A stretch of DNA of 64,000 bases from Eledone cirrhosa (lineage: Eukaryota). The stretch is taken from assembly GCA_964016885.1 (NCBI GenBank), contig OZ024745.1:87606001-87670000 (forward strand), read 5' to 3'. The notes under the pieces are model-generated. The model saw only the letters and a list, made by a program, of their open reading frames with translations, was not told where the DNA came from and made no database searches. Positions within the stretch are counted from its first letter, which is position 1. Each line of letters starts with the position of its first letter. This document shows positions 167 through 14,800 of this stretch, piece by piece. Position numbers and translations under genes: made by a program.

Positions 167-1231
167 AAACAGGCAAAGCTAAATCAGGATACTATAGAGT
201 ATACCAATAGATATCCCGACAAAATTGACGGTATCAACATGGCCGACACCTCATTATCAGAAGAGTTCAACAACAAAAACACCAACATTTATGGGAACGC
301 AAAAATAGATAATGATGAAATGTCTGTGTTATGTTTGCCGCCGAAATTTGCGACATTCAAGAAGGTAAATATGATTAGTTGTCTGTCAGAAATAGAAAAA
401 TCATTTACAAAACTACGCTGGAGCATCAAAAACAAAAGCAACAATATACGCACACACATATACAACACACATCCCAACAACAACAGACACACAGACACAA
501 ACAACAATAACAACAACACACACATCAACAACAACAACAATAGCAACATAGCCAGAAACAACAACAACAGACACGCAGACACAAACAACAATAACAACAC
601 ACACAACAACGATAACACACACGGAGACAACAACACACATCAACAACAGCACACATCAACAACAACAACAACACACACGCATTCAATGCCTCTCACCACC
701 ACCACAATCTTAACAAACACACAGACACAGAAAACAAGTAATGACAGTAGCACAGAAATCAGAGAAATAAGGGAAAGTAATAAGATTAAAAGGAAAAGGA
801 GATGGGAGACTAAGGATAAAGAGAATAACCAAGACGAACACACAGACACACAAAATAGGGTAGATAACAACATTGAGCCAGTGGAAAGAGACAGGAGTAA
901 TTATGAGAGACATAGAAACAACCATGAGGCTGTTGGTGGAAATAGAAATAGAAACAACACAACTAACAATAACAATAGCACTAGTACACATAAAGCAGCA
1001 GCCTGGAACTCTCCGTTTTATAATCCCTCCGATAAATCATTCGACCTGCGACGAGTCCACACCAAGACTTTACCATTTAACAAACGCACGCAGTTGCCGT
1101 CGCAGGTCGATGAATAAACAGAAGCACAATTTAGTATAACTAAATCCGAATTTAGAAATATTATAGAACAGTATAGCAAGAAGCATAATAGAATAGAGGC
1201 CCAGCAACTGGGAGAAAAATCTGCAAATGGC
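167..1231 (+). pseudogene. N-terminal part of the PLE A polyprotein, separated from the RT by a single TAA at 1115-1117
   Basis: ORF 89..1117 and ORF 1232..3373 are in the same frame, with no other stop between 1118 and 1231. Contains the PLE N-terminal-like motif LCLPPKF...EKSFTKLRW. The first ~26 aa of the 89..1117 ORF derive from the inverted segment. Confidence 0.8.
430..730 (+). repeat. (AAC)n / AC-rich low-complexity tract encoding Asn/His/Thr runs
   Basis: Visible aacaacaac and acacac repeats; translation NNNRHTDTNNNNNN. Confidence 0.85.
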
Positions 1232-3373
1232 TTGCGTAAGCTCATGCAGCGCTCGCGTAATGGAGAGATAGCATGCTTTCCAACAGACAAGTCTGGCAGA
1301 ATGTCGGTTGACAGCCTGCCAAACTACATCCAGGCAATGCAACCCCACATCACTAACACAAGAGAGGTAACACCACAGGAGCATGAGGATAGAGAAAAAG
1401 CCCTCAATGCCCATATGGTGATGTGGACGAATATAATGCAGCCCAACAAAAGGACTGCCAACAACTTCCAGGCCTGGAACAATGACGTGCCGGCGTTGTA
1501 TGGGCTTCGAAAAGACCATAAAACGGGCTGTGACCCTGTCGCGGGACCACCAACACGGCCAGTCTGTGGAGCTAACATTGCTAGTAACTACAGACTGACC
1601 TACTTCCTCTCCCTGATCATACGCCCCATCATTGAGATGTCCCCAGATGTATGTGACAGCACGGAGGACATCCTCAGCAGAATCGGCATGAGTAACCGAT
1701 CTGGAAACCTAACAAAATGCATAATAGGCAGTATGGATGTTGTGTCCCTGTATCCATCTATTGACGTGGATTTTGCTGTGGAGAAATGCGTAGAAATGAT
1801 CAACGAGAGCAAGGTTGAGTTCCGTGGGATTGATACCAGTGAGCTGGGACTTCTACATAAGCTTACCCATAGTAATAGTTACCTAGACACTTATGACCTT
1901 AGCAACCTGTGCCCTACAAGACCAGCAAGAGGCAGACCACCTACCATTACCTCAATGGCCAAGAAAACCCACACAGATAGATGGAACGGGTGGACCAGAG
2001 CCATACGGACACCCGAAAACCACGATGAACTGAAGAAAATGATTGCACATGCGGTAGGGGCCAGCATAAAATTAACCCTTAAGGAACATATGTTCAAATT
2101 TAATGGAAAAACATATGCCCAAGAGGAAGGAGCAGCCATTGGTGTTAGCATTGCAGGCGACATAGCTAACTTATTCATGGTATGGTGGGACAGCAGACTT
2201 AAACTTAAACTTAAAGAACAATTAGAAGACAGCTTAAACCTGATAATGTACTCCCGCTACGTAGATGATATAAACATCGTAGTTAAGACACCCCCACTAG
2301 AGAACAGTCAGGAACTAGAGAAAAACAGAATGGAAAGCATCCAGCAAATAGCAAACTCCATCCACCAGAGTATTAGAGTTACTATAGACTACCCAAGTAG
2401 ACACCCCAACCATCGATTACCTGTACTAGACACAGAGCTCTGGTTAAATACCATTAACAACCAAAAACAAATCCTCCATTCCCATTATGCCAAACCCATG
2501 ACTTCCAAACATCTGATCCACCGAAACTCGGCCATTTCGGACCATACCAAATTCAACGTACTGATTGCGGATTTGGTACGGGTGATGAGAAATGTGTCGC
2601 GCATGTGCAACCCCGAAGAACTAGAGAGACACATACAACACTTCATCCACCGTATGCAGTTCTCTGGCTACAATCAGAGAGATAGAATCAGAGTGTATAG
2701 AGGAGCCAGAACCAAATGGGAAAAAATGGTAAATAATGACATAAATGGGACCTGCCCCTTGTATAGGAGCACATTTTGGAATAGAATAGAAAGAACTAGG
2801 AACAAGGCCAATAGAATAAACTCATGGTATGATAGCAATAAATACCAGAGTGTAATGTTCATCAATACAAACCCTAGACGCGAACTAGCCTACAAATTTA
2901 GAAGGGCCCTAAATAAACATAAACTCAATATTAAGATAGTAGAAAGACCAGGTACCTCCGTAAAAACACTTATTAGCAAGACACACCCGTTCCAAAGACC
3001 CTCATGTATAGATAAAAAACGTATAACCTGTAAAATAAGCCCCCATATTAACTGTAAAACTAGAAATGTAGTGTATAGCATAAAATGTACTGAAGGACAA
3101 TGTAGAAAAAAAAATGAGACAGCTCGTAGTATAGGGGAACGGATAAATGAACACTGGCGAGACCTTCAAGATAATAAAGAATCATCTGTACTCTACCAAC
3201 ATGCTAAGATAGAACACAAGGGTAAATTAGAGAACATAGAAATAAAAATAGAATCCACACACAGAAAAGATACAATGTTTAGGCAAATTACAGAGGCAGT
3301 AAGCATAAAAGAATTACAACCAAAATTAAATAGAAAATATGAGTGGAACAGCAACATCACAACTTACAATTAA
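1232..3373 (+). CDS. PLE reverse transcriptase / GIY-YIG endonuclease polyprotein (main ORF)
   Basis: RT motifs PTDKSG, LYGLRKDHK, RPVC, GSMDVVSLYPSI, QEEGAAIG, YSRYVDDI, LPVLD. C-terminal CKTRNVVYSIKC...ETARSIGERINEH...RQITEAVSI...LN resembles GIY-YIG. True start probably lies upstream in the same frame. Confidence 0.9.
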   Translation: MRKLMQRSRNGEIACFPTDKSGRMSVDSLPNYIQAMQPHITNTREVTPQEHEDREKALNAHMVMWTNIMQPNKRTANNFQAWNNDVPALYGLRKDHKTGCDPVAGPPTRPVCGANIASNYRLTYFLSLIIRPIIEMSPDVCDSTEDILSRIGMSNRSGNLTKCIIGSMDVVSLYPSIDVDFAVEKCVEMINESKVEFRGIDTSELGLLHKLTHSNSYLDTYDLSNLCPTRPARGRPPTITSMAKKTHTDRWNGWTRAIRTPENHDELKKMIAHAVGASIKLTLKEHMFKFNGKTYAQEEGAAIGVSIAGDIANLFMVWWDSRLKLKLKEQLEDSLNLIMYSRYVDDINIVVKTPPLENSQELEKNRMESIQQIANSIHQSIRVTIDYPSRHPNHRLPVLDTELWLNTINNQKQILHSHYAKPMTSKHLIHRNSAISDHTKFNVLIADLVRVMRNVSRMCNPEELERHIQHFIHRMQFSGYNQRDRIRVYRGARTKWEKMVNNDINGTCPLYRSTFWNRIERTRNKANRINSWYDSNKYQSVMFINTNPRRELAYKFRRALNKHKLNIKIVERPGTSVKTLISKTHPFQRPSCIDKKRITCKISPHINCKTRNVVYSIKCTEGQCRKKNETARSIGERINEHWRDLQDNKESSVLYQHAKIEHKGKLENIEIKIESTHRKDTMFRQITEAVSIKELQPKLNRKYEWNSNITTYN

Positions 3374-3577
3374 GGACAAAATGAAAACACACACACACAT
3401 AGAACAAACAACCAACCAACAACATGTAAATAAATAAACAAATAGATAAATGAACACAAACACACACAGACACCCGGATGTGGCGCATGCGCAAACTGAG
3501 CACACAACACACACACAGAAACAAAATGGCGTAGGACAGAAGAACGGAAAGGCACAGAAACAAAGAAAGGAATCCCC

Positions 3578-3622
3578 AGGCACTGAAGAGGTCACAGAGT
3601 GTGTGACGAAAGGACTATGACT
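3578..3622 (+). ncRNA. Minimal type I hammerhead-like motif in PLE A pLTR (copy 1, stem I mismatch)
   Basis: aggca-CTGAAGA-g-gtcaca(gagtg)tgtgac-GAAA-ggac-TA-tgact. Stem II is 6 bp, there is one extra G after A9, and stem III is minimal. Confidence 0.65.
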
Positions 3623-3844
3623 ATATATAAACAACTATCTGGTTGTGGAACCAACCAACCAACCAGAAATTTATAAGTTTGTAGATTTGTAAATTTATAA
3701 ATTTATAAATATATAATAAATTGAAGTGAAAGCAACTGGTGCGTGTGTTTCTTATTGGCAACATGACCCTCCCAAAGTATAACAATATCGGTTTCAACAC
3801 ACGATTTCAGATAAAGTATCTTGCTAAACAAATTCAGAAACGAA

Positions 3845-3925
3845 ATATATATATATATATATTCATATATATATATATTCATATATATATATATATATAT
3901 ATTCATATATATATATATATATATA

Positions 3926-3963: not shown

Positions 3964-4085
3964 GGAGGTGAGTTTTATTGTAGTACAATAAAGCAATGCA
4001 GATATCGGATAAGAAGCACTCTACAGTTTGTGGGACTGGAGTATGCATAATATAAGATCAAAAGATGGTTAAAGGAGTTCAATAT

Positions 4086-4154
4086 ATTTTATTATGCGCA
4101 TTTCAAAAACAAACATCATCAAACAATAATATTTGTGTTTTCATCAGATAAAAC
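4086..4154 (-). ncRNA. Type I hammerhead ribozyme in the inverted arm of PLE B
   Basis: Reverse complement reads gttttat-CTGATGA-aaacacaaatattatt(gttt)gatgatgtttgttttt-GAAA-tgcgca-TA-ataaaat. Confidence 0.75.
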
Positions 4155-4691
4155 AGGAGAACATGATATGAGGGCTAAAAAAACACTTGTTGATAGTGCA
4201 GTTTTAAATCAACATATGAAAAGTGGTTTTAGATTGATGTGTGATATTGGGAAAAATATTTTATTTAGAGAGGGGGGGGAGAGAAAAGGATGAAAAGGGA
4301 AGGAGATGAGAGGGAGAGATGGGTGATAGAGAGAAAGAGATAGTTTTTATAACTGAGAGGAGATATATTTTATATAGAGGGGTTGAAAGCCGTTGGAAGA
4401 TACTGTATAAATTAAAAATTTTGAAAATTAACGAAGGGAGGATATGTGCGAGGAAAAAATATATTATATTTAGGGAGGGGGGGGGGTGGAAAGGATGAAA
4501 AAAAGGGGAGGAGATGAGAGTGAAGGTGGAAAGGGAGAGATGGGTGATAGAGAGAAAGAGATAGTTTTTATAACTGAGAAAAAGATATAATGTTTTAATA
4601 TAGAGAGGTTGGGAACCGTTGGAAGATAATGTATAAATTAAAGGAATTTGAAAATTAACGAAGGGAAATTATGTATGAAGATAGAGAGAAA

Positions 4692-4953
4692 CAAACTTAA
4701 AAGAACTAACACTGCTCTCTCAGAACTCATATGGTCCTTAAAAGACAAAAACATTAAATATAACATCTTTTGGAAAAAGATTTCTTCTGCATCCTCGTAC
4801 TTGAACAGCTCTCTATCTAAAATCTGTAATCTCTGCCTAAATGAAAAATTTACCATTATCTCTAACCTAGAATCCATAATAAATAGACGCTCGGATTTGT
4901 TTTCCATCTGCCTGCATAAATTCCATAGAACTTTTCACAAAGTATACAGTTAA
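4692..4953 (+). pseudogene. C-terminal fragment of a PLE GIY-YIG endonuclease (family distinct from element A)
   Basis: TALSELIWSLKDKNIKYNIFWKKI...CNLCLNEKFTII...INRRSDLFSICLH matches, from memory, the T.LS..IW.LK...C.LCL.EK...N.RSE...C.H tail of invertebrate PLE endonucleases. Confidence 0.75.
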
Positions 4954-5008
4954 TATTCAATTCTTTATCAATTTAGAATATTTTCTCAAAGGCACATATA
5001 CATACACC

Positions 5009-5440
5009 TCTTTAAAATATACCCATCTACCTTACTTTAAAGGGCATTATACACTCTATAATACTCGTTTACTCATTACCCTCATTCTATCTTCTCGTAA
5101 AACAATAACATTTGTTTTTGACATTTTGAATATTCATCCGCAATCATTATTATTTTTTCTCTCTATCATAAATCTTTTTAATCTCAATTTCATCCTTAAT
5201 TTATTATTATATATTTTTTTTAATATATACTCATATATTCTTTAAAATATACCCATCTACCTTACTTTAAAGGGCATTATACACTCTATAATACTCGTTT
5301 ACTCATTACCCTCATTCTATCTCCTCGTAAAACAATAACATTTGTTTTTGACATTTTGAGTATTCATCCGCAATCATTATTATTTTTTCTCTCTATCATA
5401 AATCTTTTTAATCTCAATTTCATCCTTAATTTATTATTAT
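5009..5440 (+). repeat. Two ~200-bp direct repeats, period 230 bp, in the PLE B 3' UTR
   Basis: tctttaaaatatacccatctacc...ttattattat at 5009-5210 and 5239-5440; a partial diverged third copy near 5580-5630. Confidence 0.9.
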
Positions 5441-6150
5441 TTTCTTCTCCCCATCAACGAACTCATTATTAATACATATGAATTCAATATACAAACTTTA
5501 ACTTCACATTATTTTTCTCAAATCCTTCTACACATAAACTTTTTCTCTTTGCTAATTTTAAAATTCCTACATTTCTTCTTTTGACGTTAGAATATTCACC
5601 CACAATTATTATTTTTTTCTCTCTATCTTCATACATAATTTCCCTTCGTTAATTTTCAAATTCCTTTAATTTATATCTTCCAACGGTTCCCAACCTCTCT
5701 ATATTAAAACATTATATCTTTTTCTCAGTTATAAAAACTATCTCTTTCTCTCTATCACACATCTCTCCCTTTCCACCTTCACTCTCATCTCCTCCCCTTT
5801 TTTTCATCCTTTCCAACCCCCCCCCCCCTCCCTAAATATAATATATTTTTTCCTCGCACATATCCTCCCTTCGTTAATTTTCAAAATTTTTAATTTATAC
5901 AGTATCTTCCAACGGTTTTCAACCCCTCTATATAAAATATATCTCCTCTCAGTTATAAAAACTATCTCTTTCTCTCTATCACCCATCTCTCCCTCTCATC
6001 TCCTTCCCTTTTCATCCTTTTCTCTCCCCCTCCTCTCTAAATAAAATATTTTTCCCAATATCACACATCAATCTAAAACCACTTTTCATATGTTGATTTA
6101 AAACTGCACTATCAACAAGTGTTTTTTTAGCCCTCATATCATGTTCTCCT

Positions 6151-6219
6151 GTTTTATCTGATGACAACACAAATATTATTGTTTGATGATGTTTGTTTTT
6201 GAAATGCGCATAATAAAAT
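6151..6219 (+). ncRNA. Type I hammerhead ribozyme at the 3' end of PLE B
   Basis: Stem I ttttat/ataaaa, CTGATGA at 6158-6164, long G-U-rich stem II, GAAA at 6201-6204, palindromic stem III ATGCGCAT, AUA cleavage triplet. Confidence 0.75.
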
Positions 6220-6250
6220 ATATTGAACTCCTTTAACCATCTTTTGATCT

Positions 6251-6255
<5 letters not shown>

Positions 6256-6312
<57 letters not shown>
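6256..6312. repeat. (TA)n microsatellite
   Basis: Direct reading of the sequence. Confidence 0.95.
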
Positions 6313-6314
<2 letters not shown>

Positions 6315-7570
6315 TAAAACATGTCTATAGAATCACCAGATAAAATATATACCGTTTCTTCTCCCAATTAGCATAATTAACCATATAAAAAATCAATAAG
6401 ACCAAGCTATAAGAATAATGGCTCCGATGAAGAAATCTCCGACAAATAATCGAAAGAAGCCCCTTCGCGGCGGTTACGACGGATTATTTATCGAATATTT
6501 CGACAGCATGTATAACTCGATCAGATATACAGTCAACTAAACAGAATTAGGTTTAAAATAAACTACAAGAAAAGTGTACACATTTAATTACCTCTACCAT
6601 GGTTTCGTCCGCATTTTAAGACATCCGATAACATTGGATATCTAGAGCTTCGGATTCTTCAGGAGTTAGCTCAAATTTAGATAATTAATTTTCCAAAAGT
6701 GATCGCGCCAAGAATACATTCAAAAATGGCTAATTGGGAGAGGAAACGGTATATATTTTATCTGGTGATTCTATAGACATGTTTCATGATATATAGCTCT
6801 GATTATTTAATTTATTAATTCTTCATTGAGCCACAAAGTGACCCGTTGCAAAACACACATATATATATATATATGACTTTATATATATATATGTAAACCT
6901 TTATATATAATAATCTCCCGTTAGGTTGAGATACAATTTTGGCTGTATTGGGCTGCGCTTTCTAGCAAAAAGCCTACACGCCGTAAGCAACTAATCACAA
7001 CCTTTCAAACTTGACCGCTGCCACGTCACGATTCTTAGCCATTTTTGAATGTATTCTTGGCGTGATCACTTTGGAAAATTAATTGTCTAAATTTGAGCTA
7101 ACTTCTGAAGAATCCGAAGCTCTAGATATCCAATATTATCGGATGTCTTAAAATGCGGACGAAACCATGGTAGAGGTATTTAAATGTGTACACTTTTCTT
7201 CTAGTTTAATTTACACCTAATTCTGTTTAGTCGACTGTATATCTTGTAGATTTATACATGCTGTCGAAATATTCGATAAGTAATCCGTTGTAACCGCCGC
7301 TAAGGGGCTGCTTTCAGTTATTTGTCGGAGATTTCTTCATAGCGGCCTTTATTCTTAAAGCTTGGTCTAATTGATTTTTTATATGGTTAATTATGCTAAT
7401 TGGGAGAGGAAACGGTATATATTTTATCTGGTGATTCTATAGACATGTTTTATGATATATAGCTCTGATTATTTAATTTATTAATTCTTCATTGAGCCAC
7501 AAAGTGACCCGTTGCAAAACACATATATATCTATGACTTTATATATATATATATATATGTAAACCTTTAT
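6311..7570 (+). mobile_element. ORF-less PLE-type element: inverted arm plus partial tandem repeat (unit ~666 bp) with a degenerate hammerhead
   Basis: About 6311-6730 is a diverged reverse complement of about 7035-7460. About 6729-6905 is a direct repeat of about 7395-7570. No ORF; (TA)n on both sides. Confidence 0.7.
7099..7178 (+). ncRNA. Degenerate type I hammerhead (inverse copy at 6589-6668, minus strand)
   Basis: CTGAAGA-a-tccg...agatatcc/ggatgtct...cgga-c-GAAA-ccatgg-TA-gag. Palindromic stem III ACCATGGT; A10.1-C11.1 mismatch; stem I only ~3 bp (ctc/gag in the minus copy). Confidence 0.55.
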
Positions 7571-7584
7571 ATATATATATATAT

Positions 7585-8092
7585 ATATGAATGTATATAT
7601 AGTGTATTTTGCAATACACTGTATGCTTAATTAAAAGCATTTCAAAGACCTTACGCTATTGTTTTAGAGTAGTGACAGTCTCACTTACTTTAATTTTCAG
7701 TAAACAGGGGAGATAAAGCTGACAGTGCTCCGTTTCGCACTTTTTGGTGCTTATCAAATCTAACTACGCCGCCTGTTTGCCGAAAATTATGAATGTTTGA
7801 TTCTTATAGAATTCCAGTAATAATCAGGAACTGATTATACAGAGCGGTTGCCGGTCAAGTAGAAATTGAAAATTAGAATTGGTGCTCTGAAATAGCGGAA
7901 CAGGCGGAGTAGTTAGCTTTGATAAGCACCAAAAAGTGCGAAAGCGAGCTCTGTCAGATTTATCTCCCCTGTTTGCTGAAAATTTAAGTAAGTGAGACTG
8001 TTACTACACTAAAGCAATAGCGTAAGGTCTTCGAAATGCTTTTAATTAAACATAGTGTATTGCAAAATACACTATATATACATTCATATATA
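7585..8092. mobile_element. Fold-back element with ~190-bp imperfect inverted arms in TA-rich flanks
   Basis: About 7585-7778 is the reverse complement of about 7899-8092 (atgaatgtatatatagtgtattttgcaatacact... / ...agtgtattgcaaaatacactatatatacattcat). About 8097-8125 is an additional inverted copy of about 7870-7897. Confidence 0.8.
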
Positions 8093-8121
8093 TATATCGC
8101 TATTTCAGAGAACCAATTCTA

Positions 8122-9025: not shown

Positions 9026-9065
<40 letters not shown>
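9026..9065. repeat. (TA)n microsatellite at the centre of a short palindrome (gggtgagtgt...acactcaccc)
   Basis: Direct reading of the sequence. Confidence 0.9.
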
Positions 9066-9068
<3 letters not shown>

Positions 9069-9109
9069 TCACCCAAAGAAAGGAATCCAAATATATATAT
9101 ACACTCACC

Positions 9110-9286
9110 CAAAGAAAGGAATCCCCAGTCACTGAAGAGGTCACAGAGTGTGTGACGAAAGGACTATGACTATATATAAACAACTATCTGGTTGTGGAAC
9201 CAACCAACCAACCAGAAATTTATAAGTTTGTAGATTTGTAAATTTATAAATTTATAAATATATAATAAATTGAAGTGAAAGCAACT
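9110..9286 (+). mobile_element. Solo pLTR of PLE A (177 bp)
   Basis: Nearly identical to 3561-3737; I saw one difference (aggca vs agtca). Both copies end at ...gaaagcaact. Confidence 0.92.
9127..9171 (+). ncRNA. Minimal type I hammerhead-like motif (copy 2, perfect stem I)
   Basis: agtca-CTGAAGA-g-gtcaca(gagtg)tgtgac-GAAA-ggac-TA-tgact; agtca pairs with tgact. Confidence 0.72.
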
Positions 9287-10662
9287 AGTCCCTCTATACC
9301 GTCATCCCCCACGCCGACGGCCTTCGCGCCCTCAAACACTACCTCGACCTTCGCCCCTCCCCCATTCCCTCCACCCCCACCCTCCTTCGCCTCGCCGAGC
9401 TGGTCCTCACCCTAAATTGTTTCTCCTTCTCGGGTGAGTTTTACCAACAGGTCACGGGGGTAGCCATGGGCACAAGAATGGGCCCGAACTATGCCAACCT
9501 TTTTGAGGCCCAAATCTTTGCCCAGTACACCGGCCCCACGCCCGAACTGTACGGTCGTTACATTGACGACTGTATCGGGCCACGACCCTCACCCGAGTAC
9601 AGCTCGACTCCTTTCTCTCCTTCTTCTGCTCCTTCCACCCCTCCTTCCACTTCACCACCTCTAACTCCACCACCCACGTCCACTTCTTAGACATCTCCGT
9701 CGCCTTCGACCCCTCCCACCACTCCCTGGTCACCTCCGCCTTCTTCAAACCCACCGACTCCCACTCTTACCTCGACTTCACCTCTTCCCACCCCACCCAC
9801 ACTAAACTCTCCATTCCCTACTCCCAACTTCTCAGGATCCGCCGCCTCTGTAGCCGTGATGCTGACTTCGAGTCCCAGGCCCTTTCCCTAGTCAGCCATT
9901 TCATCCGCAGAGGTTACCCCCCCCCGCTCTCGTCTACACCGCTCTCACCCGCGCCCGTGCTATCCCCCGCTCCACCACCCTCACCCCACGCCACCGCACA
10001 CCCACCTACCGTCTCCCCTTCCCCTTCCCCATCACCTACCACCCCTCCACCTTACCCCTCCACCGCACCATCCGCCGCCTCTTCCGACGCCTCCAGTCCG
10101 ACCCCTCCACCTCCCACATCTTCCCAACCCCACCACTCCCCTCCTTCAAACGGGCACGCAATCTCCGCACCCTCCTCGTCCACAGCTCCCTACCCCCAAC
10201 CCACGCTCCGGCATCCCCCGGTTCCTTCCCCTGTTCTAGGCCCCGCTGCAACACCTGTCCCCACATCACCAACACCACCACCTTCCAGGGTCCCAACGGC
10301 CACTCTCTCTCGGTCCTGCATGCCTTCCGCTGCAACTCCTCCAACCTAGTCTACGGACTTCGTTGCACGGAGTGCAGCGCGACTTATGTCGGACAGACGG
10401 GACGTCGCCTGGCGGACCGAGTCACGGAGCACCTCTCGGGGGCAGTTCTCCCATCGCCCGCCACTTTGATGGCCCTGGACACTCCGCACGCCATCTCACA
10501 GTCTGTGGCCTACTCCAGTGCCACGGAACACCCGCCCATCGCCTTACGGTCGAACAACGCACTATCTTCATCTTACAGACCCACACTCCCCCCGGCCTGA
10601 ACTCCCACCCTTATTCCTTTAGCGTTCGACCGCCCCCTCCCCCCAGACTTATCTCCCACTAA
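9287..10662 (+). pseudogene. Frameshifted, 5'-truncated PLE C (Neptune-like: RT, Cys-rich linker, GIY-YIG), extremely C-rich
   Basis: Across frames: SLYTVIPH, FYQQVTGVAMGTRMGPNYANLF, YGRYIDDC, FLDI, KPTDSHSYL, SIPYSQLLRIRRLCS, RGYP, PCSRPRCNTCPHI, CNSSNLVYGLRCTEC...YVGQTGRRLADRVTEH, IARHF...EQRTIFILQTHTPPGLN. Confidence 0.88.
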
Positions 10663-11753
10663 CACCACTAACACACCCCTCCTTTTCACCGCCAACCCCA
10701 CACTAACAATACTAACACCTCCACTCCACCCCTCATCTGACCACCCTTCCCAACTAACATACTAACATCCCTTCCCTCCCCTCTTCTCTTCCTCCCCCTC
10801 CTTATCACACGCACACACGCACCCACTTACACCACCCACCCCGCACGCAACTAACATCACTAACACTCCCCAGCCCCACGCACACGTACCCGCACACCCT
10901 CGTACACCACCAACTCTACACACCCTACCACCACTAACCCCCACTCACACCTGCATTCCACCCCTCCCACCTCCCGTATACTAACACCCACTAACACCTC
11001 TTCACCAAACTACACACACACACCAGTACACCACACTCCCTCCATAGAACCACACACACCCTTCTCTCCCCGCTCCACACTCACTCATCCCACTAACACC
11101 CCTACTAATACAGACACACACACGCCCACACACACCCTCCTCACTCCAACTCTCACACCTACCCATCCTCGCCTCCCTACCAATCCGCCGACTGCTGCTA
11201 TGCCCTTCCGACCACCTCTCAGCACCAACTGGCCACAGCACTCCCACTGCTGACCACTTCCTGTTGCGCGCGCACCCCACATCTCTCCTCTTCCGACCAC
11301 CGCTTCTTGGATTACCCACACGCGAAATTGACTTCTAACCAAAGCTCCAAACATCCGTGGAACTTACCAACTTTTCAACCATCCTCTTACACCATCACCT
11401 ATATAACTCCCCCCCCCCAATTTTTTTTTATTTTTTGATCCACACGCCACCCACACCCACAACACGCTTAAAACACACACACGTGCTTCCAAAAAAATAT
11501 TTACACCCTCAGCCTCCTGATTCCTCTTCTCCCACCCCCTATCCACACACGCACAGACACTCCGACCCACAAAAACACCCCCCACACACACCTTCCTGAA
11601 CATGCAACCCCGTTCTTCCCCCAACCCTCACTTTCACATACACACACACACACACACGCACACCTAACCACACACACCACCTTCAGCCCTCCCCGCTTGG
11701 ATACCCCGTCTCCCTCTCCCCACTCCACCCGCCACCACCCCTTCCCACCCCAC
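10663..11753 (+). repeat. C/A-rich low-complexity tail (probable 3' UTR of PLE C) with recurrent ACTAAC motifs
   Basis: Very G-poor; repeated cactaacacc / actaacat motifs and (CA)n. Same strand skew as the PLE C coding remnant. Confidence 0.65.
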
Positions 11754-11797
11754 ACTAATTTTCATAGAAAAAGCATATAACGATATGTGCTTTTACG

Positions 11798-11893
11798 ATT
11801 CTCCAGAAAGGCCGGTAGATAGGTAAATATTGCTGATGAGTTGTAACAACAACGAAACTAGTTCAATATTCCTTGTCTGGCTTTCTGGAGAAT
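11798..11893 (+). ncRNA. Type I hammerhead ribozyme of the satellite monomer (first copy; repeats every ~467 bp)
   Basis: Stem I aatattg(11826-32)/caatatt(11864-70); CTGATGA 11833-39; stem II gttgt(aaca)acaac; GAAA 11854-57; palindromic stem III ACTAGT; GUU triplet, predicted cut after 11863. Stem I extends via agg/cct (ta bulge) to a perfect 13-bp attctccagaaag/ctttctggagaat helix. Confidence 0.9.
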
Positions 11894-14800
11894 AGAGGAA
11901 AGGTGTTTCCTCGAAAACCAGTATGACTCTAAAAACCGGTTTGTCTGTGTGTTTACATACAGAATAGCTGGGTTACTCACAGTAAAGTAACCAGTGAAAG
12001 ACTTGTTACATCTACATATGTATACGTGTGTGTATTCATATGCATACTAGTATTTCAGTATGCATATGTAGATGTACATTTTTAACTTAATTGTTTAAGC
12101 GTCAGTCATACAAAAGTGAGTTACAAACGAAACGAAATTTAATTTCGTTTCGTTATTTGTTTTTATCGTCTCCGCTGAACCGGTGCGTACTCACACTCTA
12201 TGCAAATTAGTCTGCCCACTACTAATTTTCATAGAAAAAGCATATAACGATATGTGCTTTTACGATTCTCCAGAAAGGCCGGTAGATAGGTAAATATTGC
12301 TGATGAGTTGTAACAACAACGAAACTAGTTCAATATTCCTTGTCTGGCTTTCTGGAGAATAGAGGAAAGGTGTTTCCTCGAAAACCAGTATGACTCTAAA
12401 AACCGGTTTGTCTGTGTGTTTACATACAGAATAGCTGGGTTACTCACAGTAAAGTAACCAGTGAAAGACTTGTTACATCTACATATGTATACGTGTGTGT
12501 ATTCATATGCATACTAGTATTTCAGTATGCATATGTAGATGTACATTTTTAACTTAATTGTTTAAGCGTCAGTCATACAAAAGTGAGTTACAAACGAAAC
12601 GAAATTTAATTTCGTTTCGTTATTTGTTTTTATCGTCTCCGCTGAACCGGTGCGTACTCACACTCTATGCAAATTAGTCTGCCCACTACTAATTTTCATA
12701 GAAAAAGCATATAACGATATGTGCTTTTACGATTCTCCAGAAAGGCCGATAGATAGGTAAATATTGCTGATGAGTTGTAACAACAACGAAACTAGTTCAA
12801 TATTCCTTGTCTGGCTTTCTGGAGAATAGAGGAAAGGTGTTTCCTCGAAAACCAGTATGACTCTAAAAACCGGTTTGTCTGTGTGTTTACATACAGAATA
12901 GCTGCGTTACTCACAGTAAAGTAATCAGTGAAAGACTTGTTACATCTACATATGTATACGTGTGTGTATTCATATGCATACTAGTATTTCAGTATGCATA
13001 TGTAGATGTACATTTTTAACTTAATTGTTTAAGCGTCAGTCATACAAAAGTGAGTTACAAACGAAACGAAATTTAATTTCGTTTCGTTATTTGTTTTTAT
13101 CGTCTCCGCTGAACCGGTGCGTACTCACACTCTATGCAAATTAGTCTGCCCACTACTAATTTTCATAGAAAAAGCATATAACGATATGTGCTTTTACGAT
13201 TCTCCAGAAAGGCCGATAGATAGGTAAATATTGCTGATGAGTTGTAACAACAACGAAACTAGTTCAATATTCATTGTCTGGCTTTCTGGAGAATAGAGGA
13301 AAGGTGTTTCCTCGAAAACCAGTATGACTCTAAAAACCGGTTTGTCTGTGTGTTTACATACAGAATAGCTGGGTTACTCACAGTAAAGTAATCAGTGAAA
13401 GACTTGTTACATCTACATATGTATACGTGTGTGTATTCATATGCATACTAGTATTTCAGTATGCATATGTAGATGTACATTTTTAACTTAATTGTTTAAG
13501 CGTCAGTCATACAAAAGTGAGTTACAAACGAAACGAAATTTAATTTCGTTTCGTTATTTGTTTTTATCGTCTCCGCTGAACCGGTGCGTACTCACACTCT
13601 ATGCAAATTAGTCTGCCCACTACTAATTTTCATAGAAAAAGCATATAACGATATGTGCTTTTACGATTCTCCAGAAAGGCCGGTAGATAGGTAAATATTG
13701 CTGATGAGTTGTAACAACAACGAAACTAGTTCAATATTCCTTGTCTGGCTTTCTGGAGAATAGAGGAAAGGTGTTTCCTCGAAAACCAGTATGACTCTAA
13801 AAACCGGTTTGTCTGTGTGTTTACATACAGAATAGCTGGGTTACTCACAGTAAAGTAATCAGTGAAAGACTTGTTACATCTACATATGTATACGTGTGTG
13901 TATTCATATGCATACTAGTATTTCAGTATGCATATGTAGATGTACATTTTTAACTTAATTGTTTAAGCGTCAGTCATACAAAAGTGAGTTACAAACGAAA
14001 CGAAATTTAATTTCGTTTCGTTATTTGTTTTTATCGTCTCCGCTGAACCGGTGCGTACTCACACTCTATGCAAATTAGTCTGCCCACTACTAATTTTCAT
14101 AGAAAAAGCATATAACGATATGTGCTTTTACGATTCTCCAGAAAGGCCGGTAGATAGGTAAATATTGCTGATGAGTTGTAACAACAACGAAACTAGTTCA
14201 ATATTCCTTGTCTGGCTTTCTGGAGAATAGAGGAAAGGTGTTTCCTCGAAAACCAGTATGACTCTAAAAACCGGTTTGTCTGTGTGTTTACATACAGAAT
14301 AGCTGGGTTACTCACAGTAAAGTAATCAGTGAAAGACTTGTTACATCTACATATGTATACGTGTGTGTATTCATATGCATACTAGTATTTCAGTATGCAT
14401 ATGTAGATGTACATTTTTAACTTAATTGTTTAAGCGTCAGTCATACAAAAGTGAGTTACAAACGAAACGAAATTTAATTTCGTTTCGTTATTTGTTTTTA
14501 TCGTCTCCGCTGAACCGGTGCGTACTCACACTCTATGCAAATTAATCTGCCCACTACTAATTTTCATAGAAAAAGCATATAACGATATGTGCTTTTACGA
14601 TTCTCCAGAAAGGCCGGTAGATAGGTAAATATTGCTGATGAGTTGTAACAACAACGAAACTAGTTCAATATTCCTTGTCTGGCTTTCTGGAGAATAGAGG
14701 AAAGGTGTTTCCTCGAAAACCAGTATGACTCTAAAAACCGGTTTGTCTGTGTGTTTACATACAGAATAGCTGGGTTACTCACAGTAAAGTAATCAGTGAA

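Follow-up and report, generated by a model that had tools for sequence, protein, structure and literature searches.

Metazoan non-long terminal repeat (non-LTR) retrozymes are tandem, AT-rich, and highly self-paired repeats that bear hammerhead ribozymes, and circles of their RNA occur in coral, mussel, and axolotl (PMC7229834). The publications cited here propose, without demonstration, that Penelope-like elements (PLEs) mobilise animal retrozymes via a circular RNA; our comparisons draw on parts of the publications cited. We analysed a 64,000-nucleotide stretch of the Eledone cirrhosa genome (assembly GCA_964016885.1, contig OZ024745.1, positions 87,606,001 to 87,670,000 of the forward strand), hereafter the window, which contains a tandem array of a 467-bp, hammerhead-bearing unit. 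By its sequence, the family of this unit belongs to the known class of metazoan non-LTR retrozymes, and all testable features of this class were found, namely tandem, non-coding, and AT-rich units, a hammerhead in each unit, a self-paired monomer, and dispersed copies together with PLEs. Taken as a whole, the data are probably best explained by a folded hammerhead retrozyme RNA that was copied by a Penelope enzyme and later grew as satellite DNA.

The family resembles the retrozymes of PMC7229834 in (i) tandem, non-coding units that have less than 50% GC and a single type I hammerhead, (ii) thousands of copies that co-occur with PLEs, (iii) a self-paired predicted circle in which the ribozyme is free to fold, and (iv) a short palindromic helix III like that of axolotl. 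It differs in unit length (467 nt here; 170–400 nt, with repeats of 150–450, there), and cleavage and circles were demonstrated for those retrozymes, whereas the 467-nt family is known here from sequence alone. PMC7229834 merely proposes a PLE as the mobiliser, whereas the 467-nt copies bear a two-site tail and inverted arms; it mentions RNA editing as a possible cause of circular RNA heterogeneity in mussel. Animal retrozymes have also been described as PLE derivatives, with units of 51–972 bp and arrays of up to 300 units (Li, Clavereau, Pollet 2026, bioRxiv 10.64898/2026.07.22.740005). The family shares with them the co-occurrence with PLEs and the local satellite amplification. The PLE link in that report is pseudo-LTR (pLTR) homology in Xenopus, whereas here it is an insertion footprint, and no homology to the two neighbouring PLEs was found; the parts of that report covered here contain no analysis of insertion ends or covariation.

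Newt satellite 2 (via PMC7229834) likewise consists of long arrays of few-hundred-base units with a hammerhead in each, and Schistosoma satellite DNA and Dolichopoda pDo500, which are hammerhead satellites according to reference titles in PMC7761336, are of the same array type. Unlike in these satellites, the Penelope-type 3′ end of the window array survives, and a sequence marker indicates that the array was not a copy source. Avsunviroidae and viroid-like satellite RNAs are similarly small, non-coding, branched, and hammerhead-bearing (PMC7761336); unlike Avsunviroidae, the 467-nt family is DNA-encoded and retrotransposed and has its ribozyme on one strand only. Among the papers listed in searches of open-access full texts, no title or abstract dealt with tails, two-armed insertions, or adenosine-to-inosine (A-to-I) marks in retrozymes.

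The 467-bp array and its hammerhead

The array has a period of 467 and comprises 111.9 copies in the window, with 98% matches. We number the monomer from the predicted cut, position 1 being 11864 and position 467 being 12330.

11754-64000, + strand: tandem array, 112 units in the window and 147 hammerhead cores in all
11864-12330, + strand: predicted unit-length RNA, cut to cut (monomer 1-467), ~35% GC
11815-11886, + strand: type I hammerhead (Rfam HH9, 38.6 bits, E 5e-8; gathering score 52)
11833-39, 11840-44/11849-53, and 11854-57, + strand: hammerhead parts CUGAUGA, 5-bp stem II, and GAAA
11857-62, + strand: minimal palindromic stem III, with the predicted cut after U11863

An earlier sequence-only reading of this DNA had described 482 bases (11754-12235), which are the first unit of the array. 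The 3′ end of the array lies 16.4 kb past the window, at C5:87686376, which is monomer position 303, and (TA)n comes next. On its 5′ side the array starts, truncated, at monomer position ~358, where it abuts a C-rich Penelope-like fragment. The window array is single-armed and terminates at site A (described below) plus (TA)n. The first two units contain no open reading frame (ORF) of at least 80 amino acids in any frame.

The hammerhead core is present in all 112 window units, and its full context is identical in 110 of them. The cleavage triplet is GUU in the window type and GUC in sister subfamilies. Neither a CUGANGA core nor a match to an Rfam ribozyme is present on the array's minus strand. 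At Rfam gathering thresholds the whole window gave 0 matches; miRNA and snoRNA matches at loose E-values were dismissed as noise from AT-rich hairpins, and a sigma-70 promoter scan was set aside as irrelevant in an animal. Exact matches to the hammerhead-core pattern number 9,474 in the 3.0-Gb genome, and the subfamilies of the 467-bp retrozyme, whose periods range over 463-470, are 88-100% identical to the window unit. A search forced to a different stem II base returned just 9 mutated copies and no new family. These 9 loci were excluded from the counts of variants, G-U:A-C states, and 5′ ends but kept in the comparison of arm haplotypes, and one of them (L084) was included in the 24-unit alignment described below. 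Contigs from 6 sequencing runs of unknown kind were used solely as leads to variants, and a variant motif taken from them had no match in the genome assembly.

Avsunviroidae carry hammerheads in both polarities. The family departs from this because the minus strand of the array lacks the core, and it departs from the absence of a DNA stage in viroids because thousands of genomic copies with retrotransposition ends exist. The term viroid-like, which the sequence-only reading had applied to the RNA, therefore does not suit its life cycle, which would be that of a genome-encoded retrozyme mobilised in the Penelope manner and without a minus-strand ribozyme.

Predicted fold of the RNA and changes within it

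The + strand RNA is predicted to fold into a branched and mostly paired structure, which contains the following elements.

11769-79/11784-94, + strand: helix, 10 Watson–Crick (WC) pairs and 1 G-U
11798-810/11881-93, + strand: helix, 13 WC
11895-901/11906-12, + strand: helix, 7 WC
11921-28/12104-11, + strand: long-range helix, 8 WC
12007-25/12058-76, + strand: helix, 18 WC and 1 G-U
12126-39/12141-54, + strand: helix, 14 WC
12197-211/12221-35, + strand: helix, 14 WC and 1 C-U mismatch
11921-12111, + strand: branched domain closed by 11921-28/12104-11 and holding the 19-bp stem 12007-25/12058-76
11798-11893, + strand: extended stem I, in which 11798-11832 pair with 11864-11893 so that the cut monomer would be closed
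11968-11994, + strand: hairpin with two compensated pairs, 11974/11989 and 11975/11988
12197-12235, + strand: stem with the octamer motif ATGCAAAT (12200-07); recurrent A>G at monomer 337, 341-343, 346, 361, and 370

The sequence-only reading had placed seven helices by coordinates, and all seven were found exactly there; three more that it gave as motifs alone occur in the minimum free energy (MFE) structure. The + strand of the 482-base stretch has a folding energy of −164.1 kcal/mol (z −10.95), and 0 of 100 shuffles folded equally well. Circular folding of the cut-to-cut monomer gave z −11.1 for the + strand and −9.6 for the minus strand (60 shuffles), and 68% of the bases of this circular monomer are paired. 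G-U pairs make up 11 of the 159 MFE pairs on the + strand and 4 of 159 on the minus strand, and the + strand folds better than the minus strand in 48 of 48 units, one taken per locus. About a third of the gap of ~21 kcal/mol between the strands (~7) is already present in shuffled sequence. The strand asymmetry of the fold is real but modest. Several helix imperfections had been read as G-U pairs on the + strand; such pairs exist, but just 2 lie in the seven helices checked. Extended stem I does bring together the ends of the monomer, as had been suggested: the first 30 bases pair with positions ~402-436, just before the core. In this model, closure of the cut monomer into a circle by ligation is plausible.

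Covariation was assessed in 24 aligned natural units with a 146-pair model, the structure of which was fitted on the same sequences. Five of the 146 pairs had changed on both sides, and 99.5% of the cells pair. The two-sided changes lie in stem II, at two pairs of extended stem I (one of them in a single unit), and at two pairs of hairpin 11968-94; sliding the partners by 1-3 columns gave 0-2 such pairs. The stem II pair alternates between U-A and A-U, and pair 11808/11883 of extended stem I passed from U-A through U-G to C-G. Helix 11921-28/12104-11 is invariant in 24/24 units and thus uninformative. Columns that vary in at least 3 loci are fewer among paired positions (26/248) than among unpaired ones (29/149; p 0.016), and the singleton control gave 48/248 and 29/149 (p 1.0).

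Changes at paired positions were then divided into those fixed in a multi-copy insertion and sporadic ones, over 88 internal, strand-neutral pairs that are WC in the family majority, in 111 loci; the tallies count states, not independent tree events. The fixed states comprise 22 G-U, 8 A-C, 6 other mismatches, and 4 compensated pairs (15, 6, 5, and 3 without the loci fetched for A>G variants), and the sporadic states comprise 20 G-U, 29 A-C, 63 other mismatches, and 4 compensated pairs. The two classes differ in keeping versus breaking the pair (p 4e-5) and in the G-U:A-C ratio (p 0.036), and a G-U intermediate exists for 3 of the 4 compensated pairs. In lineages that went on spreading, changes that break a pair are depleted. 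The proposal that the structure was selected at the RNA level on the ribozyme strand is supported for the family, which exhibits compensation, fewer heritable changes in paired columns, and more G-U than A-C states, but not for the window array. At internal pairs, the variants peculiar to the array (12 other mismatches, 6 A-C, and 4 G-U) resemble sporadic mutation and mostly break pairs. The fold of the window array would be inherited from the active lineage, and the sequences support a constraint on the ancestral lineage of the RNA rather than on the array itself.

RNA editing is abundant in cephalopods, and ADAR has a site preference. Among the 22 heritable G-U states, A>G is the origin of 19, a proportion that was tested against the share of A-U pairs (p 0.03). 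The change A370G, which lies in a UAG context, has 43 matches at 14 places on at least 4 lineage backgrounds and is fixed in all units at several of them. Its partner change in the same U-A pair, T336C, which has the same context on the other strand and served as a strand control, has 5 single matches at 5 places. Two backgrounds, the L110 group and L143, carry A337G and A342G. A very young haplotype in which ATGCAAAT is altered by three A>G changes is found at 7 places (L110, L131-L137; C1, C6, C18, C410, C744), in six of which the units do not vary, and the motif seems dispensable for spread. This pattern of G-U states derived from A>G may be the trace expected of A-to-I editing on folded + strand RNA followed by reverse transcription, and the RNA of the family was likely edited in its stems.

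The G-U excess could then be a by-product of such editing, or of a bias of the reverse transcriptase (RT), with selection on the hammerhead and a few stems only and the rest an inherited palindrome. This explanation overlaps with the one that we prefer and concerns only the cause of the G-U pairs. It is possible, if rather doubtful: it accounts for the 19 of 22 A>G origins, for the recurrence of A370G across backgrounds in its UAG context, and for the repeated A337G and A342G, but it leaves unexplained the depletion of other mismatches (5/29 heritable versus 63/116 sporadic), the completion of G-U to G-C at three pairs, and the U-A/A-U swap in stem II. RNA editing may explain the G-U states as well as selection does, and G-U pairs alone are no proof of selection for G-U. 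Since editing and selection alike need folded + strand RNA, either one supports the strand named in the sequence-only reading.

Insertion ends and the copied template

PLE insertions have an inverted, truncated arm and a tail at one end (PMC8557442), and two internal RT starts bound the tail in vitro, where both DNA strands are cut and extended (PMC11167929). The ends of the dispersed 467-bp copies were surveyed in 91 fetched loci, which yielded 153 arm 3′ ends and included 53 two-armed loci. Two fixed sites account for 144 of the 153 ends, and 140 of these abut (TA)n.

12092-12097, + strand: site B (monomer 229-234), fixed 3′ end of dispersed copies; 67/153 ends in class 218-238
12166, + strand: site A (monomer 303), fixed 3′ end; 77/153 ends in class 290-306
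12098-12166, + strand: Penelope-type tail of ~70 nt between sites B and A, holding the 14-bp hairpin 12126-12154

Among the 53 two-armed, head-to-head insertions, 48 combine one A with one B end, none has A+A or B+B, and 5 have one end elsewhere. The tail is found at just one of the insertion's ends, the inverted arm is 5′-truncated, the target is microsatellite (TA)n, and the 5′ ends of the arms are scattered, with variable truncation. A target-site duplication, for which the class criterion is more than 4 bp where one is present, is unreadable because the ends sit in (TA)n. By this footprint, site B would be a reverse-transcription start, and the family works like a non-autonomous element mobilised by a Penelope enzyme. 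Endonuclease-positive (EN+) PLEs, such as PAc of Anolis (PMC11167929) and Naiad/Chlamys (PMC8557442), share with it the two RT starts that bound the tail, the AT-rich or (TA)n targets, the 5′ truncation, the inverted truncated arm, and a tail at just one end. Chlamys elements, including MRC1, provide examples of non-autonomous, multicopy insertions in head-to-tail order (PMC8557442). Unlike EN+ PLEs, the family has no ORF, a tail of ~70 nt (30-40 there, and 58 nt in the neighbouring element PLE-1), a hammerhead with extended stem I, and insertions that are whole-unit multimers.

Within an insertion, the units appear to derive from one template. The lineage haplotype of one arm matches that of the other at 59 of 70 two-armed loci, compared with 210 of 2903 random arm pairs, and 80 of 123 arms of at least 1.3 units have no variation at diagnostic sites. 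In L022, one variant is present in all 18 units of both arms, with just 2 other matches in the genome (18 of 20 lie in L022), and a very young haplotype formed insertions of up to 25 identical units. These observations are consistent with a single monomer having been copied repeatedly, most simply as a circle, although jumping across a nicked, stem-closed monomer is an alternative to a covalent circle.

The template of the same enzyme might instead have been linear, either as uncut multimers of homogeneous arrays or as cut monomers held by stem I and jumped across, which we consider unlikely. In L137 (1-6800), two lineages switch in register inside one array, between monomer 467 and 90, and the switch spans the cut site; in L021, unit-specific variants recur in both arms in the same, mirrored order, which speaks against a pure single-circle model. 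Period-2 or mixed unit patterns in L138, L030, and L034, further mosaic or period-2 insertions in L047 and L043, and haplotypes that differ between the arms of L028 likewise sit poorly with one circle per insertion. Moreover, uncut RNA is the main in vitro substrate of the anole PLE (PMC11167929), and the hammerhead may be weak. However, young insertions of 5-25 identical units and the L022 type of fixed variant need a bottleneck of one unit, and the largest array examined, that of the window, seeded almost nothing. Nor is there run-off at the cut site: none of 184 5′ ends falls at positions 1-3, 7 of 184 fall near the cut (458-3; p 0.25), and 11 ends at 456-467 form a bump noted post hoc.

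That the inverted repeats are DNA-level, fold-back palindromes of an ordinary satellite, like miniature inverted-repeat transposable elements, with RNA structure irrelevant, is very improbable: both strands do fold far better than shuffles, and the array contains a DNA-level higher-order duplication (at lag 25, 22 of 86 pairs of units are identical), but the hammerhead is on one strand with a covarying stem II, the fixed 3′ ends go with variable 5′ truncation, and the heritable changes are strand-specific, so that this reading is largely refuted for the family and apt for the growth of the window array after insertion. An endogenised viroid-like or satellite RNA replicon with added RNA-to-RNA replication is hardly credible either, since the size and branched fold do recall viroids, and the haplotype without ATGCAAAT gave at least 6 insertions of identical units, as if amplified apart from the motif, but the minus strand is without core or ribozyme match, retrotransposition fits all copies examined, and a single active source locus also accounts for the burst.

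In the mechanism that we favour, + strand RNA of array units would be transcribed and folded, and the hammerhead would cut the transcript into 467-nt monomers, which would likely be closed into circles and edited A-to-I in their stems. A Penelope-like RT would then likely copy this RNA repeatedly into (TA)n from the two fixed internal starts, with nicks in both strands of the DNA serving as primers, and DNA-level duplication would later have expanded the window insertion to ~147 units.

Besides the mosaic insertions, several observations weigh against this mechanism. The HH9 score is under the Rfam gathering score, the triplet is GUU, and stem III is minimal; no cleavage was seen in vitro for 8 of 9 predicted Xenopus retrozymes. 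The minus strand of the 482-base stretch folds almost as well as the + strand (−142.6 kcal/mol, z −9.13). Five two-sided pairs were reached by 26 of 500 shuffles, and most pairs are invariant among homologues that are 88-100% identical. A first G-U:A-C count, made with the window's own structure, was null (9:7), and the unselected ratio of 15:6 alone gave p 0.078. The places of A370G and T336C (14 versus 5) differ with p 0.064. The triple A>G of L110 was considered as the private mark of one edited circle and rejected, as it belongs to a small subfamily at 7 places, and counts of private variants are upper bounds. A comparison of the retrozyme with the two window PLEs gave a best match of 21 nt (E 0.39, opposite strand) and revealed no partner with shared sequence. 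Finally, the fetched loci (~110) are the best hits plus first-listed places and not a random sample.

The window array, its neighbours, and significance

The units of the window array differ by 4.9 positions on average and have a higher-order period of 25 units. The array majority marker C128T has 90 exact matches in the genome, 89 of them inside the array. Given the identity at lag 25 and the near-confinement of C128T to the array, the array grew at the DNA level after insertion and left few or no daughter copies; it behaves as drifting satellite DNA and a dead end as a copy source.

Upstream of the array, the window contains two PLEs.

167-3845, + strand: PLE-1, itself two-armed and inserted in (TA)n; its ends, 3787/3845, lie 58 nt apart; not part of the array
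1118-3373, + strand: PLE-1 RT and GIY-YIG-like frame, N-terminal part interrupted; RVT_1 E 9e-4, below cut-off
~3575-3622, + strand: minimal hammerhead of PLE-1
9109-9287, + strand: pLTR piece of PLE-1, oriented like the array and preceded by (TA)n
9288-11753, + strand: broken C-rich Penelope-like RT/GIY-YIG fragment, directly 5′ of the array and in the same sense

The two-armed layout with a 58-nt tail is found in the PLE-1 family at 5 places (the window and four others). The identity of the C-rich fragment as a PLE was read from motifs and has no Pfam hit. PLE-1 as the partner by homology was not borne out, and its tail region folds no better than shuffles (z 0.6). The 21-nt match (18/21) lies between the outer end of PLE-1 (3826-3846) and the opposite strand of the tail hairpin (12142-12162), and the motif is also present in sense on the 5′ arm of that hairpin; it may be due to chance or represent a shared recognition element. 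In 9026-11754, (TA)n, the pLTR piece, the PLE fragment, and the array are joined in one sense, with ~6 nt of microhomology at 11754, and these joins may reflect nested insertions or a single RT run in which the template was switched twice. Three more long inverted-repeat elements (4042-6263, 6306-7461, and 7579-8097; arms of 445, 392, and 199 nt) are flanked by (TA)n and are possibly further two-armed insertions.

The flanks of dispersed copies hold other features. In L005 (1279-2136), both outer flanks open with the same ~30 nt past (TA)n, inverted, and in L060 (~440-750) a long perfect fold-back element follows (TA)n past the array 3′ end. Unrelated hammerhead-like motifs occur in the (TA)n-rich flanks of L008, L021, L024, L031, L035, L069, L077, L094, L099, L101, L103, L110, L111, and L117.

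The fold itself is expected for the retrozyme class, and what the family adds is mechanistic. It supplies start sites (monomer 229-234 and 303), a rule of one end of each kind per insertion, and heritable A>G marks, which make the mobilisation step testable in vitro with the existing PLE assay. Strand asymmetry of G-U pairs is often taken to prove that RNA structure was selected, but editing can confound this reading when an element has an RNA stage. A retrozyme can also finish as inert satellite DNA. A bolder account, which we hold tentatively and find nearly as easy to accept as to doubt, is that the family represents a parasitic circular RNA with a fold that evolves by A-to-I editing in the host: editing would convert A-U pairs to G-U, a PLE RT rolling from both strands of a DNA cut would write an edited circle into every unit of a new array, and later U>C changes would lock some pairs as G-C. 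If this is true, the genome would preserve, in fossil form, both rolling-circle reverse transcription and structural evolution driven by editing.

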